A stretch of DNA of 29,144 nucleotides from a virus. Taxonomy: Duplodnaviria; Heunggongvirae; Uroviricota; Caudoviricetes. The notes under the pieces were generated by a model. It was not told the origin of the DNA. It made no database searches and worked only from the letters and a program-made list of their open reading frames with translations. The stretch lies in the IMG/VR virus record IMGVR_UViG_2737471841_000001, positions 1 to 29,144 of that record, one strand, 5' to 3'. Position 1 is the first letter of the stretch; each line of letters starts with the position of its first letter. The translations under genes and the position numbers were made by a program. This document shows, one piece after another, positions 3,050-24,859 of this stretch.

Positions 3050-3460
3050 ATGAAGCAAACAATCTTCCTCCGAAGTAAGCAACAACAGCAAGCCGCAATC
3101 AACGCCATCCTCGAAACTCCTCTCGATAAAGACAAGCCAGTCACCATCCGCATTACTGACTACAAGCGCAATCTTGACCAGAACGCAAAATTTCACGCGA
3201 TGCTGGCGGATATCGCTCGTCAGGTTCAATGGTGCGGCAAATGGTTAAAACCGGAACAGTGGAAGGTTTTGTTGATTAGCGGTCATGCAGTGGCAACAAA
3301 ACAGGAAGCTGATGTTTTGCGCGGCCTTGAAGGCGAATTCGTCAACATTCGCGAAAGCAGCGCGCAGATGAGCGTGAAGCGTATGGCAAGTCTGATCGAG
3401 TACACAACAGCCTGGGCTATTGGTCAGGGTGTCAGATTTACCGACAGGAGGTACGAATGA
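3050..3460 (+). CDS. ninB: NinB (Orf-family recombination mediator)
   Basis: 136 aa, resembles lambda NinB as I recall it (e.g. [27 protein letters not shown]); nin-region context. Confidence 0.9.
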
Positions 3461-4811: not shown

Positions 4812-5170
4812 GCGAATATCAGTTTGTGCTTCCATACCCGCCGTCGGTGAACACCTACTGGCGAAGACGGGGAAGCCAATACTACATCAGCGATAAAGGC
4901 CAGAAATACCGAAAAGACGTTCAGCAAATCATCCGCCAACTTAAGTTAGACATTTTCACCAAATCACGACTCCGCATCAAAGTCATCGCAGACGTTCCAG
5001 ACTCCCGCCGCCGCGACCTCGACAACATCCTGAAAGGTTTACTCGACTCCCTTATCCACGCCGGATTTGCGGAAGACGACGAGCAATTCGATGACATTCG
5101 CGTAATTCGTGGCGTGAAAGTACCAGGCGGAAGGCTTGGAATAAAAATCACCGAACTGGAGAACGCATGA
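4808..5170 (+). CDS. rusA: RusA Holliday-junction resolvase
   Basis: 120 aa, LPYPPSVNTYWRRRG ... DVPDSRRRDLDNILKGLLDSL ... GGRLGIKITE matches the RusA family. Confidence 0.9.
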   Translation: MSEYQFVLPYPPSVNTYWRRRGSQYYISDKGQKYRKDVQQIIRQLKLDIFTKSRLRIKVIADVPDSRRRDLDNILKGLLDSLIHAGFAEDDEQFDDIRVIRGVKVPGGRLGIKITELENA

Positions 5171-5355
5171 ACGCCACAATTCAAACGATACCAGAGCTTC
5201 TTATCCAGACACGAGGCAATCAGACTGAAGTGGCAAGGATGCTTTCCTGCGCAAGAGGAACAGTGCTCAAGTACAACCGAGACAGCAAAGGCGAGCGTCA
5301 TGTAATAGTTAACGGCGTCCTGATGGTCAAACAGGGCAAGAGGGGAAGACGATGA
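5167..5355 (+). CDS. ninH: NinH
   Basis: 62 aa, IPELLIQTRGNQTEVARMLSCARGTVLKY resembles lambda NinH; coupled start/stop. Confidence 0.8.
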   Translation: MNATIQTIPELLIQTRGNQTEVARMLSCARGTVLKYNRDSKGERHVIVNGVLMVKQGKRGRR

Positions 5356-5975
5356 GACTCGAAAGCGTAGCTAAATTTCATTCGCCAAAAAGCCCGATGA
5401 TGAGCGACTCACCACGGGCCACGGCTTCTGACTCTCTTTCCGGTACTGATGTGATGGCTGCTATGGGGATGGCGCAATCACAAGCCGGATTCGGAATGGC
5501 TGCATTCTGCGGTAAGCATGAACTCAGCCAGAACGACAAACAAAAGGCTATCAACTATCTGATGCAATTTGCACACAAGGTATCGGGGAAATACCGTGGT
5601 GTGGCAAAGCTCGAAGGAAATACTAAGGCAAAGGTACTGCAAGTGCTCGCAACATTCGCTTATGCGGATTATTGCCGTAGTGCCGCGACGCCGGGCGCAA
5701 GATGCAGAGATTGCCACGGTACAGGCCGTGCGGTTGATATAGCAAAAACAGAGCAGTGGGGGAGAGTTGTCGAGAAAGAGTGCGGAAGATGCAAAGGTGT
5801 CGGCTATTCAAGAATGCCAGCAAGCGCCGCATATCGCGCTGTGACGATGCTAATCCCAAACCTTACCCAACCAACCTGGTCACGCACTGTTAAGCCGCTG
5901 TATGACGCTCTGGTGGTGCAATGCCACAAGGAAGAGTCAATTGCAGACAATATTTTGAATGCAGTCACACGTTAG
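5352..5975 (+). CDS. Q: Late-gene antiterminator Q (lambda type)
   Basis: 207 aa; matches lambda Q as I recall it essentially throughout (MRLESVAKFHSPKSPMMSDSPRATASDS ... CRDCHGTGRAVD ... CGRCKGVGYSR). Confidence 0.95.
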   Translation: MRLESVAKFHSPKSPMMSDSPRATASDSLSGTDVMAAMGMAQSQAGFGMAAFCGKHELSQNDKQKAINYLMQFAHKVSGKYRGVAKLEGNTKAKVLQVLATFAYADYCRSAATPGARCRDCHGTGRAVDIAKTEQWGRVVEKECGRCKGVGYSRMPASAAYRAVTMLIPNLTQPTWSRTVKPLYDALVVQCHKEESIADNILNAVTR

Positions 5976-15315: not shown

Positions 15316-15322
15316 TAACCAG

Positions 15323-15347
15323 AGGGAGCTTCGGCTCCCTTTTTTAT
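15323..15347 (+). terminator. Intrinsic terminator after coat gene
   Basis: AGGGAGC-TTCG-GCTCCCT stem-loop followed by TTTTTTAT, 8 nt after the coat stop. Confidence 0.7.
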
Positions 15348-15359
15348 CTGGAGACAAGC

Positions 15360-15596
15360 ATGACACACATGATCTTTCGTCATGGCGACATGAAGAAATG
15401 GAAAGGCGTTGGCTACGACTTTGAAATCGTGAAAGCCGAAGAGCTTCAGGAATATCTGGATGCTGGCTGGTTTTCACATCCTGATGACCTTTTGAAGGAT
15501 GTTGCAGAGCCAGAGCCAGAGCCAGAAGAAAAACAGCGTAAAAAGCCTGGTCGAAAACCTAAGGCGGCAGCAGATGAACCTGACAACGAAGGGTGA
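15360..15596 (+). CDS. Hypothetical small acidic protein (overlaps gp4 start)
   Basis: 78 aa from ATG 15360 just after the terminator; C-terminus [28 protein letters not shown]; overlaps the gp4 start by 23 nt in another frame. Confidence 0.4.
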
Positions 15597-16074
15597 TTTA
15601 GTCCTTGCGGCATTACGTAAGCTCGGTGTGGCATCAAATGCCACGTTAACAGATGTCGAACCGCAGTCTATGGAAGACGGCGTCAACGACCTTGAAATGA
15701 TGATGGCTGAATGGCTTGGCGGTGATGCGTCACCTGGTATCAACGTTGGCTACATTTTTGCTGATGCAGATGTCGCTCCGGATCCGGGCGATGAGCACGG
15801 TTTATCAAATAACGCTATCAATGCCGTCATTTTTAACCTTGCCTGCCGCATTGCTCCAGATTATGCGCTGGAAGCGTCAGCAAAACTTATAACCACTGCC
15901 AGATACGGGAAAGAGCGACTCGTCAAACTGTCTGCAATGGACAGAGCAAAAGCCGCTAAATGTAAGTCCGGTTATCCAAACCGTATGCCTGTTGGTAGCG
16001 GTAACCAGTTGGCGAAGTGGAATGGTTGGAATTACTTCCACCGAAAGGAACCTTGCGATAACGGGAGCGAATAA
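15574..16074 (+). CDS. 4: Head completion / tail accessory factor (P22 gp4-like)
   Basis: 166 aa from ATG 15574 ([33 protein letters not shown]). The ORF track start at 15499 is probably run-in. Confidence 0.85.
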
Positions 16075-16179
16075 ATGCCTATTCAGCAACTTCCGCTTAT
16101 GAAAGGTGTCGGCAAAGACTTCCGAAACGCCGACTATATCGACTATCTGCCAGTGAATATGCTGGCAATTTTGATATAA
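16075..16179 (+). pseudogene. Orphan 5' fragment of gp10 (34 codons), displaced by the HNH gene insertion
   Basis: Starts 1 nt after gp4 stop; MPIQQLPLMKGVGKDFRNADYIDYLPVNMLA then ILI-stop; same N-terminus reappears in diverged form at 16748. Confidence 0.65.
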
Positions 16180-16215
16180 TAAGTACATGAAAAATCGAAA
16201 CTTTAAGGAGTAGAT

Positions 16216-16800
16216 ATGCTTTCTGAGAATGCTAAAGATATACCTGGATTTGAAGGTGTTTATGCCGTAACAGAAGATGGCAGGGTGTATTCTCACTCAC
16301 GTGTTGTTAAGGCTGCGCATGGCAGCACGCAACTCAGAAAGGGGCGCTGGTTAAAGCCTAAAATAAATCAGGGAAGGGTGCTTTATAATATCGGAGCAAA
16401 ATGGACTTTTGCCCATCGAATCGTTGCAATGACATTCCTGCCAAATCCTGAAAACAAGCCTCAGGTAAATCATATTGATGGCAATCCACTCAATAATAAC
16501 GTCAATAATCTTGAGTGGTGCACTCAAAGCGAAAACATCAAACATGCATACGCCACCGGATTAAAGAAACCAATCAAGTTTTTCGGAACCAAGCACCCAA
16601 AACACAAGTTGAGTGATGACGATGTTCTTGCAATCAAGTCATCAAAAGAAAGCTTGTCAGTAATTGCGGCTAAGTACGGGATATCTAAGACCTGGGCAAG
16701 TAGGCTAAAGCGTGATGCTAACTGGGTTCATATAAAGGTTGATTCCAATGGCAATACAACAACTACCACTAATGAAGGGATTGGGGAAAAGTGCGGTTAA
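16216..16800 (+). CDS. Free-standing HNH homing endonuclease (NUMOD4-like N-terminus, HNH core, C-terminal HTH)
   Basis: 194 aa; GFEGVYAVTEDGRVYSH, HRIVAMTF ... VNHIDGNPLNNNVNNLEWCTQSEN (HNH), LSVIAAKYGISKTWASRLKR (HTH). 3' end overlaps the gp10 start. Confidence 0.85.
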   Translation: MLSENAKDIPGFEGVYAVTEDGRVYSHSRVVKAAHGSTQLRKGRWLKPKINQGRVLYNIGAKWTFAHRIVAMTFLPNPENKPQVNHIDGNPLNNNVNNLEWCTQSENIKHAYATGLKKPIKFFGTKHPKHKLSDDDVLAIKSSKESLSVIAAKYGISKTWASRLKRDANWVHIKVDSNGNTTTTTNEGIGEKCG

Positions 16801-18166
16801 TGCTGATTATATAGACCAACTTCCAGTCAATCTTTTAGCTACGTCTAAGGAGGTGTTGAATTCATCGGGATATCTTCGCTCATTCCCGGGCATTGCCAAA
16901 CGTTCTGATGTGAACGGTGTATCGCGCGGCGTCGAGTACAACATGGCGCAGAGTGCTGTTTATCGAGTGTGTGGTAGCAAGTTGTATAAGGGCGAAAGTG
17001 AGGTCGGTGATGTTGCCGGAAGTGGTCGCGTATCAATGGCGCATGGTCGGACATCACAGGCGGTAGGCGTTAATGGTCAACTGGTCGAGTATCGCTATGA
17101 TGGCACGGTTAAAACCGTCTCAAACTGGCCTGCAGACAGTGGATTTACTCAGTATGAGTTAGGTTCAGTCCGCGACATTACGCGCTTACGTGGGCGTTAT
17201 GCGTGGTCAAAAGACGGCACGGATTCATGGTTTATCACTGACCTTGAAGACGAATCGCATCCTGACCGTTACAGCGCACAATATCGCGCAGAATCGCAGC
17301 CGGACGGTATCCTCGGCATCGGAACATGGCGAGACTTCATCGTCTGCTTTGGTTCATCGACGATTGAATATTTTTCCCTGACTGGGGCAACTACCGTTGG
17401 TGCCGCTTTGTATGTCGCACAGCCATCACTGATGGTGCAGAAAGGCATTGCCGGAACTTACTGCAAAACGCCGTTTGCTGATTCCTATGCGTTTATCAGC
17501 AATCCGGCAACAGGTGCTCCGTCTGTATACATCATCGGCTCCGGTCAGGTATCACCAATCGCCAGCGCGAGCATTGAGAAAATCCTCCGCTCCTACACTG
17601 CTGATGAACTGGCTGATGGTGTGATGGAATCGTTGCGGTTTGATGCTCATGAGTTGCTGATTATCCATCTTTCGCGTCACGTCCTTGTGTACGACGCATC
17701 TTCAAGCGCCAATGGTCCGCAATGGTGTGTGCTGAAAACAGGCCTGTATGACGATGTGTACCGCGCTATCGACTTCATTTACGAAGGCAATCAGATAACG
17801 TGCGGCGATAAGCTGGAGTCCGTGACCGGGGAATTGCAGTTCGATATATCTTCACAATACGAAAAACAACAAGAGCATATTTTATATTCCCCTCTAATAA
17901 AGGCTGATAACGTTTTAATAAATGACCTTGAATTAGAAACATCTGGCGGCGTGTGTGATAGAATAGATAGAATATTTATATCAGCCACTACAGATGGAAT
18001 TAATTACGGTCGTGAGCAAATGGTTGTATTACAAAAACCATTTGTATATGACAATCGCGTTTTATGGCGAAAGGTTGGTCGAGTTAGACGCCTCATTGGA
18101 TTTAAATTCAGAGTTATTGCAAAAGGTCCTGTCACATTATCAGGCCTTTCTATTCGTGTAACATAA
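16748..18166 (+). CDS. 10: Tail hub / tail accessory protein (P22 gp10-like)
   Basis: 472 aa from ATG 16748 (MAIQQLPLMKGLGK...); the track start at 16739 is TTG. Position and length match P22 gp10. Confidence 0.9.
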   Translation: MAIQQLPLMKGLGKSAVNADYIDQLPVNLLATSKEVLNSSGYLRSFPGIAKRSDVNGVSRGVEYNMAQSAVYRVCGSKLYKGESEVGDVAGSGRVSMAHGRTSQAVGVNGQLVEYRYDGTVKTVSNWPADSGFTQYELGSVRDITRLRGRYAWSKDGTDSWFITDLEDESHPDRYSAQYRAESQPDGILGIGTWRDFIVCFGSSTIEYFSLTGATTVGAALYVAQPSLMVQKGIAGTYCKTPFADSYAFISNPATGAPSVYIIGSGQVSPIASASIEKILRSYTADELADGVMESLRFDAHELLIIHLSRHVLVYDASSSANGPQWCVLKTGLYDDVYRAIDFIYEGNQITCGDKLESVTGELQFDISSQYEKQQEHILYSPLIKADNVLINDLELETSGGVCDRIDRIFISATTDGINYGREQMVVLQKPFVYDNRVLWRKVGRVRRLIGFKFRVIAKGPVTLSGLSIRVT

Positions 18167-18187
18167 ATCGAAACTTAAGGAGTAGAT

Positions 18188-18721
18188 ATGTTAAGTGAAA
18201 ACGCAAAAGATATCGAAGGATATGAAGGACTGTACGCCATCACTAATGATGGTAGAGTTTACTCGCATTCAAGAGTAAATTTGAGGGGACGTCTTATTAA
18301 GGGGAGGTGGCTGAAGCATAATCATAACGTAAATGGATATAAGTATGTGTGTTTATATAAGGATGGCGTAAAAAAGAACATACTAATACATAAGCTTGTT
18401 GCATCTCACTTTGTTGGTGGATTTGCTGAAGGGTTACAGGTTAACCATATAGATGGTGATAAATATAATAATAACTATCTAAATCTTGAATGGGTTACTC
18501 CATCAGGAAATATCTCACACTCATATGGATTGGAATCGCGAGGTAATGTTAAAGGAGAAAGGAATGGTAATTCTAAAATATCTAATGATGATGTCATAAA
18601 GATAAAAGAAATGGTTGCCAATGGATTTCCTCAGTGTGAAGTTGCTAAATTATTTGGAATTCACAATTCAAAGGTTAGTAGAATTGTAAATGGCAAGGCA
18701 TGGAGGCATGTGAATGGCTGA
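18188..18721 (+). CDS. Free-standing HNH homing endonuclease (paralog of 16216..16800)
   Basis: 177 aa; N-terminus [30 protein letters not shown] nearly identical to the first HNH protein; HKLVASHF ... [20 protein letters not shown]; C-terminal HTH; AT-rich. Confidence 0.85.
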
Positions 18722-19562
18722 TTCGAATCTCAATGAGCCGGTAACAATTCAGGCTGCGCGCCTTGATGCTTCAATTTTGCCACGCAATATATTCAGCCAG
18801 TCTTACCTGCTGTATGTCATAAATCAGGGTGCTGATGTTGGCGCAATTGCCGGGAAGGCAAATCAGGCTGGTCAGGGCGCTTATGACGCACAAGTCAGGA
18901 ACGATGAGCAGGATGTGATTCTCGCTGACCATGAGCAGCGAATTTCTGCTGCGGAAGCAACGCTTGTTAATCATGAGGAGAGAATCAGCCAGGCAGAATC
19001 AACTCTTCAGGAACATGAAACGCGAATCGCTCAGAATGAAAGCGATATTGCGTCGCTTGATACCAGAGTTCAGTCGCTGGAGTCGCAGGTTTCAGACCAT
19101 GAATCGCGCATCGATGCTCTGGAGTATGCCACTACTCGCAAGAAGTCAGAGGTTGTTTACTCTGGCGTATCAGTAACCATCCCGACAGCGCCGACCAACC
19201 TTGTTAGCCTGCTGAAAACGCTCACGCCGTCATCCGGCTCGTTGGCACCATTCTTCGACACCGTTAACAACAAGATGGTTGTGTTCAACGAGAACAAAAC
19301 CTTGTTCTTCAAGCTGTCGATTGTCGGGACGTGGCCCAGCGGAACCGCCAACAGGTCAATGCAGCTAACATTTTCCGGTTCTGTTCCTGACACACTGGTA
19401 AGCAGTCGCAACTCGGCGACAACAACCGATAACATCTTGTTAGCTACGTTCTTCAGCGTGGATAAAGACGGCTTTCTTGCCACAAATGGCAGCACGTTAA
19501 CCATTCAGTCAAATGGTGCGGCGTTTACTGCCACAACCATCAAAATAATTGCGGAGCAGTGA
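18714..19562 (+). CDS. 26: Tail needle (P22 gp26 family) with coiled-coil repeats and a distinct C-terminal domain
   Basis: 282 aa; N-terminal ~60 aa resembles gp26 ([41 protein letters not shown]); tandem ~14-residue HE-RI repeats; C-terminal ~140 aa unrelated to P22 gp26. Confidence 0.85.
18931..19120 (+). repeat. Imperfect ~42-nt tandem repeats encoding the tail-needle coiled coil
   Basis: Repeated units beginning CATGAGCAGCGAATT / CATGAGGAGAGAATC / CATGAAACGCGAATC / CATGAATCGCGCATC, i.e. HEQRIS / HEERIS / HETRIA / HESRID. Confidence 0.6.
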
Positions 19563-20699: not shown

Positions 20700-22172
20700 A
20701 TGGCTACTTGGCAACAAGGAATCAACTCAGGCGGTTTTCTTGCTGGTATCGGTGGGCAAAACTCAAATGCGCCAAAGGCAAGTGATGTAAGTGAGGCGTT
20801 GGCCTATATTCGCCAGAACAACGAAATGGAGCGTTCAGGTCGCAATAACATCGGCCTTCAGGCGTTGCAGGGACTTGGTAGTGTCGCTCAAACATATAAA
20901 GCCGCAAAGCAACAGGAAGCGGATGCTGCATTCCAAAAAGAATATGCGGTAGCCATCCAGTCAGGTGATCGACAGCAGGTGCGAGATCTGATGACCAAAT
21001 ATCCTCGTCAATTAGAGAAGATTCAGTCTGGTATGAAGTGGGCAGACGAAGACCAACGCAATTCTATAGGCACCTTAGCGGCTGGCGCACGCCTTGCGGC
21101 CTCGTCTCCAGAAGCAATGCAATCATGGCTGCAAAACAACGCCAAGGAACTGACTCGCGTCGGTGTTGACCCTAACAGCGTTGCTCAGATGTATCAGCAG
21201 AACCCTTCAGGATTTGGTGAGTTTGTTGATCACCTTGGAATGGCTGCTCTTGGTCCAATTGATTACTTCAATGTTCAGGACAAGATGGCTGGTCGTGAGA
21301 TTGATCGCGGGAAACTTGCAGAGACAATCCGCAGCAATCAGGCTGGAGAAGCACTTCAGGCGAGAGGGCAGGATATTAGCCGAGCAAATGCGTTAACGTC
21401 AGCATATGCACCAACAGCCGCAATGCAGAATTACAATCAGTACGCGCAAATGTTAAAGGCGGATCCAGATGGTGCAGCGGCATTTGCGGCAGCGGCGGGA
21501 ATTAATCCCAATGCTAAGAAATTACTTAAGGTTGAAACCAATCCTGATGGCTCGGTAACTAAGTATTACACCGATGGCAGCGAGGAAGCCGGAAAACTAA
21601 ACCAACCTATATCTGGTGATGGCATTAAACCAATTAGCTTGCCACAAGCGCAAAGCATCATAGATAAGGCTAATGAGGGTTCCAAGAAGGCGGCAGGATT
21701 TGCTTTGCGATTAAAAGATTCAATGGACTCAATGAATCAGCTTAGTAAAAGCATTGACCCTAAGCGAGTTGCATTAATAAATCGCTCTCTTGGTGATGGG
21801 ACTATTGCAAATTTAAGCCTATCACCAGCGGAGCAGCAATATATGGTAAATGCGAGAGACGCATTGTATGCAATTTTGCGCCCAGAAACAGGTGCAGCAA
21901 TTACTCTGCCAGAGATGCAGGAGTATTCCAAAATGTACCTGCCTCAGCCCGGTGATTCCAAGGCTGCTACTGAAACAAAAATGCGAAAAATGCAGGGCCA
22001 ATATAACTCATTACGTGGTCAGTCTGGTCGCGTTTATGATGCTTTGGTGGTTTCAAGTGCTGCAAATAGTCAACAACAGAGCAATAGCCAACAACCGACA
22101 AATACCCAACAGCAGCAGAGTCAATCCGGATCATATACCTCAAAATCAGGCATTCAATTTACGGTGGAATGA
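20700..22172 (+). CDS. 20: Ejection protein, gp20-like
   Basis: 490 aa, position and composition consistent with P22 gp20. Confidence 0.8.
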
Positions 22173-24301
22173 TGAAAGTAACTGCAAACGGTAAGACATT
22201 TACCTTCCCTGATGGTACGAGCACGGAAGATATTGGCACCGCCATTGATGAGTATTTTGCTGGTCAGGCTGTTCAGCAACAAACAGTTAATCAGGCCAAT
22301 AATGAACCAGCACGTGAAGAACTATCATTGATGCAACAAGCTGGCGATTGGCTCACAGGTGGTCAAAGTGCAGGGCAAATTGCAGAGCAGGCTGGTCGCG
22401 GTCTGGTAAACATACCATTTGACGTATTGCAGGGTGGCGCAAGTCTGATTAATGCAATCAGCCAAGGGCTTGGTGGCCCCAAGGTTTTGGATGATGTTTA
22501 TCGCCCTGTCGATCGACCGACAGACCCTTACGCGCAAGCCGGTGAAACAATTGGTGGGTATCTCCTGCCAATTGGCACAGCGGCAAAAGCTGCTGGAGCG
22601 CCAGCAAAGCTCGCTGTAGATATCGGTTCCGCAGGAAACATGATTGCAGGTTCTCTTGCTGATGCTGCAAATCAGGAGGGCGACTTTGCACAAAATGCTG
22701 CCATTAACGGTGGTATCAATATTGGTGCTCAAGGCGTTCTTTCTGGTGTCGGGCGCGTTATTGCGCCAAGGGTCTCACAGGCTCTTGGTGGTGCAGCACT
22801 GAATTCTGCTAATGATGTTTCCAGGATGGCAAAGTCAGGTGCTGGGCGTCAGTCAATTGCCAGTCAGGCCGCTAATGTGTCCGAAGATGTAGCAAAAGCG
22901 GCTGAGTCTGCTGGAATTGATATAAACGCATTAACACCAGGAATGCGATCTGGAAGTCGTGGAATTGCACAAGCCGAAGGCGCATTGGCATCAACACCAG
23001 GAATTGTTCAGGACGCCCATCAGGCAGCATTTAACGAAATATCATCAAAGTTAAGTCGAAACCTTGATGAATTTGGGGCCGCATCTGGAACGGCATCAGA
23101 AAAAAGTGCGGCTATAAAACAAAGGATTCTTCAAAATCTTGATCAGATGAAGGATGCCGAGCGCGCGGCATGGGATGACGTGCGGTCAACAATGCCAAAT
23201 CAAAAAGCAAGAATGCTAAATGGTAATGCTGTTATTCAGGCAGAGCGATCTGCTGGCATACCGCTTACTCCTGAAATGAAACAGTTTGTTCAGGCAAACA
23301 ATCAAGGTGGAGTAACATTTGATGGCATGAAAGCATGGAGAGCGAAATTTGCTGATGCGGAGCAAAAATATAAGCGTAGCGGAGAGGCAAATGCGGCAAG
23401 GAGAGCAGGGGAAATACGCCGGGCAATTACTGATGATATGCGCACAATGGCGGAAAACGGCGGATTTCTTGATGGCTGGCAGAAAGCTAATGATCTGTCT
23501 AAAGCGAGGTTATCAGCACAAGAGGGTGCAGAGTCTGTTTTCGGGCGTGATTTGGCAACAGATGCACTGATTACGAATGGAGTAAAATCCCTTCAATCAT
23601 CTTCAGCTAAAGGTCTTAATGGTCCTGCTGGATTCCATTCTATGATCCGCGCTCTGCCAGTATCAGAGCGTGTTCCTGCTATATCATCAATGCTGCAAGA
23701 TGCTATCTCGCATGGTGTCCGTGGTGGCAAATCTGATGCTGCAGGAATTAACCATATCGCAGAGATACTCACGCCACAAAATGTAAAAGCCATTAGCCGA
23801 TATTCCTCAGAGCTTGGAAGAATTGCTGATGCATATGGCACTCTTGCAAGAGCAGCAGTGAAACCTCAGCAGTATATTGAAAGAACAGGGAGAACTGCCA
23901 ATGTACTACGCGATCTTGATGCTGGTTTATCCAACGTTACATCAACAGTGTTAAATGCAATTGCCAACTCAACATCAGGTGCCATTGTTGGTGGAGCAGG
24001 AGGTGGGGGCGTTGCTGGCGCTGCCGCTGGCGCTTTAGTTGGCGCTGGGTTAAAAGGCGCTGTATCTAAAATTGCTACCACGCGTAGCGGTCGATATGCG
24101 ATAGAGAAAGCAGTTCAGGAAGCCACGAAAGCAGTAAGAGCTGGCGGAAGTAAAGAAGCATTAGCGGCGGCGGAACGCAGATTTATGGCAAATAAAGCCG
24201 CCGTAAAAGCAATACGAGATGCTATTGGTAGCGATGAATTCAATCGCTTGTCGAGAGCTGGTATTGTCGCCTCGTTAAGCGGTATGAATGAATATGAATA
24301 G
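22169..24301 (+). CDS. 16: Ejection protein, gp16-like
   Basis: 710 aa, Ala/Gly-rich; ATGA overlap with gp20; last gene of the rightward virion operon. Confidence 0.8.
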
Positions 24302-24303
24302 AT

Positions 24304-24789
24304 TTATCTAATGTTGCTGCTACTGTTGCATGTTACCGTGTTTCCAAATCCTGAATTGCAGTTTGTATATGTGTCAACGCGTGTTGGGTAAGGTTGAGTT
24401 ATAACAGGCTGGCGCGCTTTTTGCTCGATCGCTTGCATTGTGTTTACAGCCTGATAATTCAATAAAGCCTGCTGGAATGCTTGGCTTTGTGCTATTTGTT
24501 GGGCTTGTTCTTGGCTTTGTAATTGAACATAAAGATTCTGAAGCTCAAGTCTTGCCTGTGCGTCACTTATCTTGCCTTCATCGACACCTTGCCCGAGCAT
24601 CTTTGCAGCAAGGACATACAGCTTAGGTGTTGGTGCTGATGCCATGCGTGAGTCGTTCTTCACACTGGCATCAAGGCAATTAGCCATATCGCTAAGCTTT
24701 TGATAGCGTTGTTCGCAACTTGCTTGATAGTCACTTACTTTTGCGCATCCAACCAGCAGAAGCGGGATAATTAACAGTGATTTTTTCAT
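24304..24789 (-). CDS. Secreted lipoprotein of unknown function (candidate lysogeny-expressed moron)
   Basis: 161 aa from ATG 24789 (AAGGAG 9 nt upstream); signal peptide with lipobox MKKSLLIIPLLLVGC; four further Cys; Gln-rich helical middle. Confidence 0.7.
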   Translation of the reverse strand: MKKSLLIIPLLLVGCAKVSDYQASCEQRYQKLSDMANCLDASVKNDSRMASAPTPKLYVLAAKMLGQGVDEGKISDAQARLELQNLYVQLQSQEQAQQIAQSQAFQQALLNYQAVNTMQAIEQKARQPVITQPYPTRVDTYTNCNSGFGNTVTCNSSSNIR

Positions 24790-24859
24790 ATGGTTAACTC
24801 TCCTTAGTTTTTCACAGGATATCATGAAAGCAATGCCATTTTAGCCGGAAACTAGATTT

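Follow-up and report, generated by a model that had tools for sequence, protein, structure and literature searches.

A P22/Sf6-like prophage carries two free-standing HNH endonuclease genes, one at each end of its tail hub gene gp10. It lies in a 29,144-nucleotide (nt) stretch of DNA (positions 1 to 29,144 of IMG/VR record IMGVR_UViG_2737471841_000001, Caudoviricetes; hereafter the window), and the window comprises most of it. The homing endonuclease genes (HEGs) are designated HEG1, between gp4 and gp10 (site A), and HEG2, between gp10 and gp26 (site B). Each belongs to a cassette that consists of an I-HmuI-like endonuclease gene and a diverged, AT-rich copy of the adjacent gp10 end, and the cassettes show a sporadic and recent distribution across diverse P22-like phages. 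Sequence comparison argues that two independent free-standing HNH homing-endonuclease cassettes probably invaded both gp10 ends and spread by break-induced recombination. The features of the locus are as follows, with lengths of proteins in amino acids (aa).

15499-16074, + strand: gp4 head-to-tail adaptor (Pfam P22_Tail-4, E 1.6e-58)
16075-16179, + strand: orphan gp10 5' fragment, 34 aa (Pfam Phage_stabilise positions 1-28, E 7e-11, above the family cutoff)
16148-16167, + strand: terminator-like hairpin TGCCAG-N8-CTGGCA, then ATTTTGATAT (pattern scan)
16190-16215, + strand: HEG1 leader AAAAATCGAAACTTTAAGGAGTAGAT with strong Shine-Dalgarno sequence (leaders of HEG1, HEG2 and a third paralog, HEG3, set side by side)
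16216-16800, + strand: HEG1, 194 aa, free-standing, NUMOD4 and HNH_3 (HNH_3 E 1.9e-10, NUMOD4 E 1.3e-8, both above the Pfam cutoff)
16748-18166, + strand: gp10 tail hub, 472 aa, ATG at 16748 (full Phage_stabilise profile, E 5e-277)
16748-16867, + strand: foreign 5' tract of gp10, codons 1-40, HEG1-linked (allele comparison)
16868-17847, + strand: resident gp10 body (nt 121-1098), tail hub beta-propeller (allele comparison)
17848-18166, + strand: foreign AT-rich 3' end of gp10, codons 367-472, associated with the site-B HEG (GC content and allele comparison)
18167-18187, + strand: HEG2 leader ATCGAAACTTAAGGAGTAGAT with Shine-Dalgarno sequence (conserved in all HEG2 and HEG3 loci)
18188-18721, + strand: HEG2, 177 aa, free-standing, NUMOD4 and HNH_3, with a C-terminal helix-turn-helix-like region (NUMOD4 E 5e-13, HNH_3 E 5e-10)
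18714-19562, + strand: gp26 tail needle, Sf6-type knob (Pfam Phage_tail_NK, E 2e-116)

A displaced native start and a mosaic gp10

An earlier note on this DNA, made from the letters of the window alone, had placed a 34-codon copy of the gp10 start, closed by a stop, directly after gp4; its coordinates and its Phage_stabilise match bear this out. The note had also reported that the 3' end of the first HNH gene overlaps a second, diverged gp10 start, and that another HNH gene follows gp10 and overlaps the tail-needle start. Both statements hold. The ribosome-binding site and ATG of gp10 sit in the last 53 nt of HEG1, which overlap gp10, and the reading frame continues as full-length gp10 to 18166. 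The insertion point of HEG2 falls precisely at the boundary of gp10 stop and gp26 ATG, and the gene extends 8 nt into gp26, taking in that ATG at 18714. The orphan shares one reading frame with HEG1, as gp10 does with HEG2; read-through fusions look unlikely in either case because in-frame stops intervene (three TAA codons in 16075-16215, two stops in 18164-18187).

Alignment with the HEG-free relatives Louie and Sf6 gave precise empty sites; the gp10/gp26 site in both reads ...GAGTAATGGC... Window positions 15400-16166, which cover gp4 and the first 92 nt of gp10, are 96% identical to Louie, and similarity restarts at 16747, again with gp10 nt 1. The orphan is 96-98% identical to the gp10 start of Louie and Sf6. 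Its homology to native gp10 stops at 16166 (gp10 nt 92), and its last three codons and TAA derive from the insert. Compared with the working start, which encodes the N terminus MAIQQLPLMKGLGK, the orphan is identical at 59 of 92 nt (64%) and at 24 of 31 residues, 16 of the 24 being specified by a different codon. A 28-mer corresponding to native gp10 nt 93-120 is absent from the window, where no match was found within three mismatches. The alignments thus identify the orphan as the resident native gp10 start, cut off after nt 92, and the start now in use as the imported one.

The junction between native and inserted sequence, GGCA followed by ATTTTGATATAA, is invariant in 30 loci, and the first ~60 nt of the orphan track the local backbone. 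The hairpin at 16148-16167 ends exactly at this junction; its GCCAG/CTGGC inverted repeat is already present in the native gene, and it folds no better than shuffled sequence (z = -0.96). Folds compared with shuffles (z = -0.96, 0.10 and -1.05) likewise gave no support for RNA structure that hides the ribosome-binding sites of the HEGs or gp10. A search for HEG-specific promoters found sigma-70-like matches only inside open reading frames (ORFs), and fewer than in shuffled sequence. Since they have no detectable promoter, the HEG cassettes are presumably read from the late operon transcript.

Public annotation handles the displaced start in different ways. PGAP labels the orphan equivalent an incomplete 'packaged DNA stabilization protein' pseudogene. 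The RefSeq record of Salmonella phage UPF_BP1 (NC_047875; locus L001, 2501-3283) leaves the orphan unannotated and starts gp10 at a downstream ATG, so that the gene is 1311 rather than 1419 nt long; its true start lies within the HNH gene, at locus position 3175. Annotators of carriers should place the gp10 start at an ATG within the HEG and treat the short ORF upstream of it as a displaced piece of the gene.

A 60-nt sliding comparison with nine other alleles resolved gp10 into three parts. The 5' tract (nt 1-120) is 97.5-98% identical to the alleles of HEG1 carriers versus 58-61% to HEG1-free alleles. It shares ~60% DNA and 78% aa identity with the native sequence, 71% of the conserved residues are recoded, and the GC content at third codon positions (GC3) is 0.35 versus 0.57. 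The body shows about 93-95% identity (92.6-94.7%) to all alleles in the comparison, with or without HEGs. The 3' tract, the last 106 codons, is 93-100% identical to HEG2 or HEG3 carriers versus 56-58% to the others. Its GC content of 0.35 matches that of HEG2 itself (0.35), and its GC3 is 0.21 versus 0.58 in native alleles. The protein that it encodes is 66% identical to Louie and to Salmonella phage BTP1, which are 92% identical to each other there. The identity splits of both tracts follow HEG presence exactly. The left edge of the 3' tract varies by locus, lying ~339 nt or ~250 nt before the gp10 stop, as co-conversion tracts behave.

The proposal that an endonuclease insertion had brought donor flanking sequence with it is thus supported, the diverged gp10 start being foreign and HEG1-linked. 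The alignments further indicate, beyond what the earlier note contained, that the orphan is native and the working start imported, that the last 106 codons are imported as well and linked to HEG2, and that the whole arrangement is recurrent.

Endonuclease genes and their distribution

Both proteins scored above the Pfam gathering cutoffs for HNH_3 (40.6 bits for HEG1 and 39.3 for HEG2, cutoff 24.8) and NUMOD4 (35.3 and 49.5 bits, cutoff 23.4). HEG2 aligns nearly full length with residues 4-163 of I-HmuI (PDB 1U3E; E 8e-21), and HEG1 matches the same structure over the N-terminal 110 residues (E 1e-8). Neither protein lacks the HNH catalytic residues: the catalytic His and the metal-binding Asn are kept as VNHIDG...SEN in HEG1 and VNHIDG...SGN in HEG2, aligned on DH75...N96 of I-HmuI, and the NH and Asn of the motif are invariant in 52 distinct relatives. 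The C terminus of HEG2 gave an HTH_23 match below the cutoff (E 1.6e-3). No HTH_23-type match was found in HEG1, the C terminus of which runs on into gp10. All 34 distinct alleles of HEG1, HEG2 and HEG3 (15 of 15 for HEG1) are intact, and polymorphic codons divide into synonymous and non-synonymous as 12:8 in HEG1, 22:5 in HEG2 and 46:16 in HEG3. By these sequence criteria, the HEG1 and HEG2 proteins look functional.

The two proteins had been described as almost identical over their first ~30 residues with heavy synonymous divergence, and as old paralogs rather than a recent duplication. Both points stand: 25 of the first 30 residues are identical, 17 of these are recoded, and nt identity over these codons is 67%; overall identity is just 43%, which makes HEG1 and HEG2 old paralogs. 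Their leaders are nearly identical, including the strong Shine-Dalgarno sequence. The 3' ends of both genes also have AATGGC in common; this motif might mean that one cassette derives from the other, yet the start codons of the downstream genes account for it equally well. HEG3 encodes 181 aa and occupies the gp10/gp26 site in phage HZ41 (L008, 2889-3434), in loci L036-L047 and in 16 E. coli genomes. Its first 47 residues (~164 nt) are 85-89% identical to HEG1, and the remainder is only ~50% identical to HEG1 or HEG2. This chimera suggests exchange by recombination between paralogous HEGs.

Matches to the region came from 924 of 5426 complete E. coli genomes, of which 18 have HEG1, 36 have HEG2 and 2 have both (0.7 expected, P = 0.15). 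The two cassettes assort independently. Co-mobilisation of gp10 within a HEG island was considered and rejected, in view of this co-occurrence and of a gp10 body that is similar whatever the HEG content. HEG prevalence is ~2-4% of E. coli P22-like prophages, and both genes are absent from P22, Sf6, HK620 and Louie. PGAP labels HEG1 'HNH endonuclease' and HEG2 'NUMOD4 domain-containing protein', and RefSeq already has the arrangement as a pseudogene with an HNH endonuclease. Both HEGs bracket gp10 also in three further loci (L004, L005 and L098), as does HEG1 together with HEG3 in L018.

HEG1 is at least 99% identical in the 18 E. coli genomes. IMG/VR holds 26 contigs with HEG1 at 99-100% protein identity, and neither the spacing of the orphan nor the junction differs among them. 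This HEG1 cassette and junction recur in UPF_BP1, where the orphan is of Salmonella type in its first ~60 nt. The backbones that carry HEG1 comprise at least five gp4/coat types in two host genera (E. coli and Salmonella). gp4, the upstream neighbour of gp10, is highly variable across P22-like phages; in HEG1-carrying loci it is 99, 58, ~41, ~40 or ~39% identical to the window gp4, and the coat types differ accordingly. In 24 distinct HEG1-carrying haplotypes, nt diversity is 0-0.015 over 16135-16854 but reaches 0.055 at the start of the orphan (its first 60 nt) and 0.05-0.09 across the gp10 body, so that the HEG1 cassette is ~10-fold less diverse than its flanks.

HEG2 is 98.5-98.7% identical in its 36 E. 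coli genomes, and nt diversity leaps to ~0.2 directly after the HEG stop codon, into gp26. A rearranged gp10 lacking an endonuclease gene was sought among the relatives, and neither foreign tract was seen without a HEG at any locus examined. All 31 loci with the orphan and the foreign 5' tract carry HEG1, which is present too in an extra contig recovered by the recoded 5' sequence; all 25 IMG/VR loci with the AT-rich 3' tract carry a HEG after gp10 (HEG2, HEG3 or a fourth paralog). The fourth paralog (L132-L134, 2843-3385) is 56-57% identical to HEG3 and accompanies an 89-92% identical variant of the AT-rich gp10 tract. The gp10 body of L134 is only 68% identical to that of the window, which indicates that this cassette reached a more distant P22-like lineage.

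Other occupants and decayed copies were noted at these sites. A HEG1 carrier, L028, has a different HNH gene at the gp10/gp26 site (4945-5448) that tblastn with HEG1 and HEG2 did not detect; it has an HNH motif and, by eye, an apparent C-terminal AP2 domain, and the AT-rich gp10 3' tract is missing from this locus. With several HEG classes among its occupants, the gp10/gp26 site looks like a hot spot. An IS1-like insertion lies between gp10 and HEG3 in L117 (2465-3275), and an IS3-family insertion truncates HEG2 in E. coli ETEC6333/6334 (H78, H79, H151 and H152). In E. coli ES5 (H109), HEG1 has a 1-nt deletion and is annotated as two ORFs. HNH genes also occur elsewhere in the structural operon: Louie has an HNH endonuclease gene upstream of the coat gene (L002, 1-59), and Salmonella phage SEN22 has one between terminase and portal (PMC5261728). 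Two 1.6-kb contigs of a Collinsella metagenome-assembled genome (L206 and L210, JAIHTM010000369/370) encode an enterobacterial-type gp10 and probably represent bin contamination.

Beyond this locus, the window encodes a primase-helicase, NinB, an antirepressor, antiterminator Q, a lysozyme and the small terminase subunit gp3. Three long ORFs follow gp3 at the positions held by large terminase, portal and scaffold in P22-like phages, and then come the coat gene, gp4, gp10, gp26 and a run of ORFs at the injection-gene positions. The window also has genes for an integrase and for a tailspike whose head-binding domain is of P22 type. Just 3' of the coat gene, a strong terminator-like hairpin (AGAGGGAGC-TTCG-GCTCCCTTT and a T run, 15321-15342) is the counterpart of the 't coat' terminator annotated in Sf6. 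On the minus strand, a 173-aa ORF with no Pfam match (24304-24825) lies between a long ORF (22169-24301) and the tailspike gene.

Predicted homing route and alternative explanations

The cassettes would home in co-infected cells, or on entry of a HEG-free relative into a cell where the prophage is induced. The predicted enzyme would nick or cut the HEG-free gp10 allele, and repair from the HEG-carrying genome would copy the HEG together with its private gene end; the carrier would resist its own enzyme, having the target only in recoded form. From the architecture of the locus, the HEG1 target probably spans about gp10 nt 85-125, because carriers lack no native sequence other than gp10 nt 93-120 and the native part of the orphan breaks off at nt 92. 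The 92 native nt of the orphan would provide the HEG1 cassette with a left homology arm, since gp4 is too variable (~40% aa identity between types) to do so. This role fits the finding that the 5' part of the orphan tracks the local backbone, and such an arm would let the cassette enter any P22-like phage. For the site-B cassette, gp26 is the proposed right arm.

Once established, HEG1 could not easily be deleted by direct-repeat recombination, because the orphan and the working start share only 64% of nt. Imprecise loss of either HEG would be lethal, given that the gp10 start signals lie within HEG1 and the gp26 ATG within HEG2; these embedded signals would favour HEG retention, as in T4 (PMC2988022). 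In the Sf6 tail, the N- and C-terminal extensions of the hub co-fold into an apical domain inserted between two gp4 adaptors (PMC9728967). Because the extensions fold together there, the two HEG-linked tracts probably both contribute to one gp4-contacting apical domain; single carriers, in which this domain would be chimeric, are nonetheless common.

We advance more tentatively, as a possibility rather than an expectation, that the HEG1 cassette homes into a gene interior as a self-contained unit requiring neither intron nor intein, with recoded first 40 codons and the native 92 nt as a portable left arm that makes it independent of gp4. If so, the site-A and site-B elements together could rewrite the adaptor-hub interface. 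The cassettes could also help create the gp4/gp10 mosaic boundary, which is well known in P22-like phages.

Several observations weigh against homing by the two cassettes. I-HmuI-type enzymes nick DNA and make no double-strand breaks, which leaves the repair route uncertain. Many carriers are prophages, some of them defective, and this limits the opportunities for homing. Across 49 distinct native gp10 alleles, no conservation peak was found at the predicted HEG1 site (nt 85-125). No collection searched revealed a lineage from which the foreign gp10 tracts came: tblastn with the 106-aa 3' tract against 50,697 phage records returned just HEG-linked copies (89-100%) or native gp10 at no more than 70%, with the same outcome in a 5.8-billion-protein search, IMG/VR and the GTDB species representatives. 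The population pattern could also be obtained from ordinary recombination and hitch-hiking. As to possible donors, one intermediate match to the 3' tract (P0003, 76%) was ruled out as a frameshifted assembly of a HEG3 carrier.

A related explanation holds that the endonucleases no longer home and are relics, the arrangement being kept by vertical descent and ordinary recombination among P22-like prophages. Most carriers are indeed prophages, some clearly defective (K_EC180, with truncated neighbours), and the frameshifted HEG1 of H109 and the copies interrupted by insertion sequences speak for this reading. However, every sampled distinct allele is intact with synonymous-biased polymorphism, and backbones from E. 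coli and Salmonella with ~40% gp4 identity share HEG1 at 99% or more, while its flanks are ~10-fold more diverse. We consider such relics unlikely. The HEGs could instead, or in addition to homing, serve as weapons that cut an essential hub gene of co- or superinfecting HEG-free P22-like phages and thereby favour the carrier. Their targets would lie in an essential conserved gene common to competitors, of which the carrier's own copy is recoded, but the cassettes are at low frequency and have not swept. This role is compatible with homing and does not exclude it; we give it a small though appreciable chance.

HEG1 might also reside in a self-splicing group I intron, with splicing joining the orphan (exon 1, codons 1-31) to the rest of gp10 to give the N terminus MPIQQLPLMKGVGK. 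The closest solved relative, I-HmuI, is intron-encoded, and the orphan ends exactly where native homology resumes downstream. Yet a scan of 15800-19000 with an E limit as loose as 5 matched no Rfam intron family, and the orphan is closed off by three in-frame stops. The insert also supplies a full alternative gp10 start that an intron would not need, with an ATG of its own, AAAGG as a Shine-Dalgarno-like site and 40 codons conserved at 78% of aa. An intron is thus very improbable here. HNH proteins assist terminases in HK97-like phages, and the HEGs, co-oriented within the late structural operon, might be morphogenesis or packaging accessory factors of that kind. We regard this as scarcely credible: the genes occur in only the few per cent of E. 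coli P22-like prophages given above and are missing from the four phages P22, Sf6, HK620 and Louie, they do not adjoin the terminase genes, and the NUMOD4-HNH_3 architecture, with a candidate HTH region in HEG2, is that of I-HmuI. P22-like phages, moreover, package by a headful mechanism that needs no such factor (PMC9728967).

With homing by two cassettes as the probable explanation, the locus offers a natural series of empty, singly and doubly occupied alleles for studying homing among temperate phages. P22 and Sf6 are genetically tractable model phages with solved tail structure. The locus bears on how far HEGs drag their flanks and on whether they help form the sharp mosaic boundaries at gene borders of lambdoid and P22-like phages.

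Relation to known homing systems

I-HmuI of Bacillus phage SPO1 is the product of a group I intron ORF and nicks a single DNA strand. HEG2 likewise combines an N-terminal NUMOD4-type DNA-binding sheet and an HNH_3 core, followed by a candidate C-terminal helix-turn-helix region. Sequence identity between I-HmuI and the HEGs here is only about 35-40%, and the residue before the catalytic His is Asp in I-HmuI and Asn throughout this HEG subfamily. In contrast to the intron-encoded enzyme, HEG1 and HEG2 are separate ORFs with their own ribosome-binding sites and stops and with no Rfam intron match.

Free-standing HNH homing endonucleases that sit beside essential phage genes and show co-conversion have been described (PMC2988022, PMC2790892). 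The T4 genes for MobE, SegG, SegF and others are promoter-less and co-oriented, lie beside the targeted essential gene, have co-converted flanks and embed host signals, with the cut site separate from the insertion site (PMC2988022). All these features are seen or inferred in the cassettes described here. Here, however, the cassettes reside in temperate P22-like phages, they are linked to replacement gene ends of ~60% identity rather than to minor polymorphisms, and HEG1 leaves the displaced native gene start behind as an orphan. In HEG islands, two HEGs bracket an essential structural gene, and the HEG at a fixed site turns over, being replaced by homologs or by unrelated classes (Barth, Dunham and Seed 2023, PMC10448857). 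gp10 is bracketed in the same way, and site B holds HEG2, HEG3, the fourth paralog or the AP2-type HNH gene, but the gp10 body between the HEGs is not carried along with them.

The architecture of the orphan gp10 start is that of free-standing HEGs in fungal mitochondria, where part of a neighbouring gene (atp6, cox1 or the atp9 N terminus) is duplicated and one of the two copies persists as a pseudogene (PMC7487136). The fungal genes differ in encoding GIY-YIG or LAGLIDADG enzymes, in residing in organelle genomes and in having mostly near-identical duplicates, versus 64% nt identity here. No earlier description of these P22-like cassettes was found in the literature searched, outside which most subscription-journal papers fall. 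Elements of this kind are already known, and public databases already annotate the genes; the single trait that is unusual in a phage is the retention of the displaced native start, likely as a homology arm.

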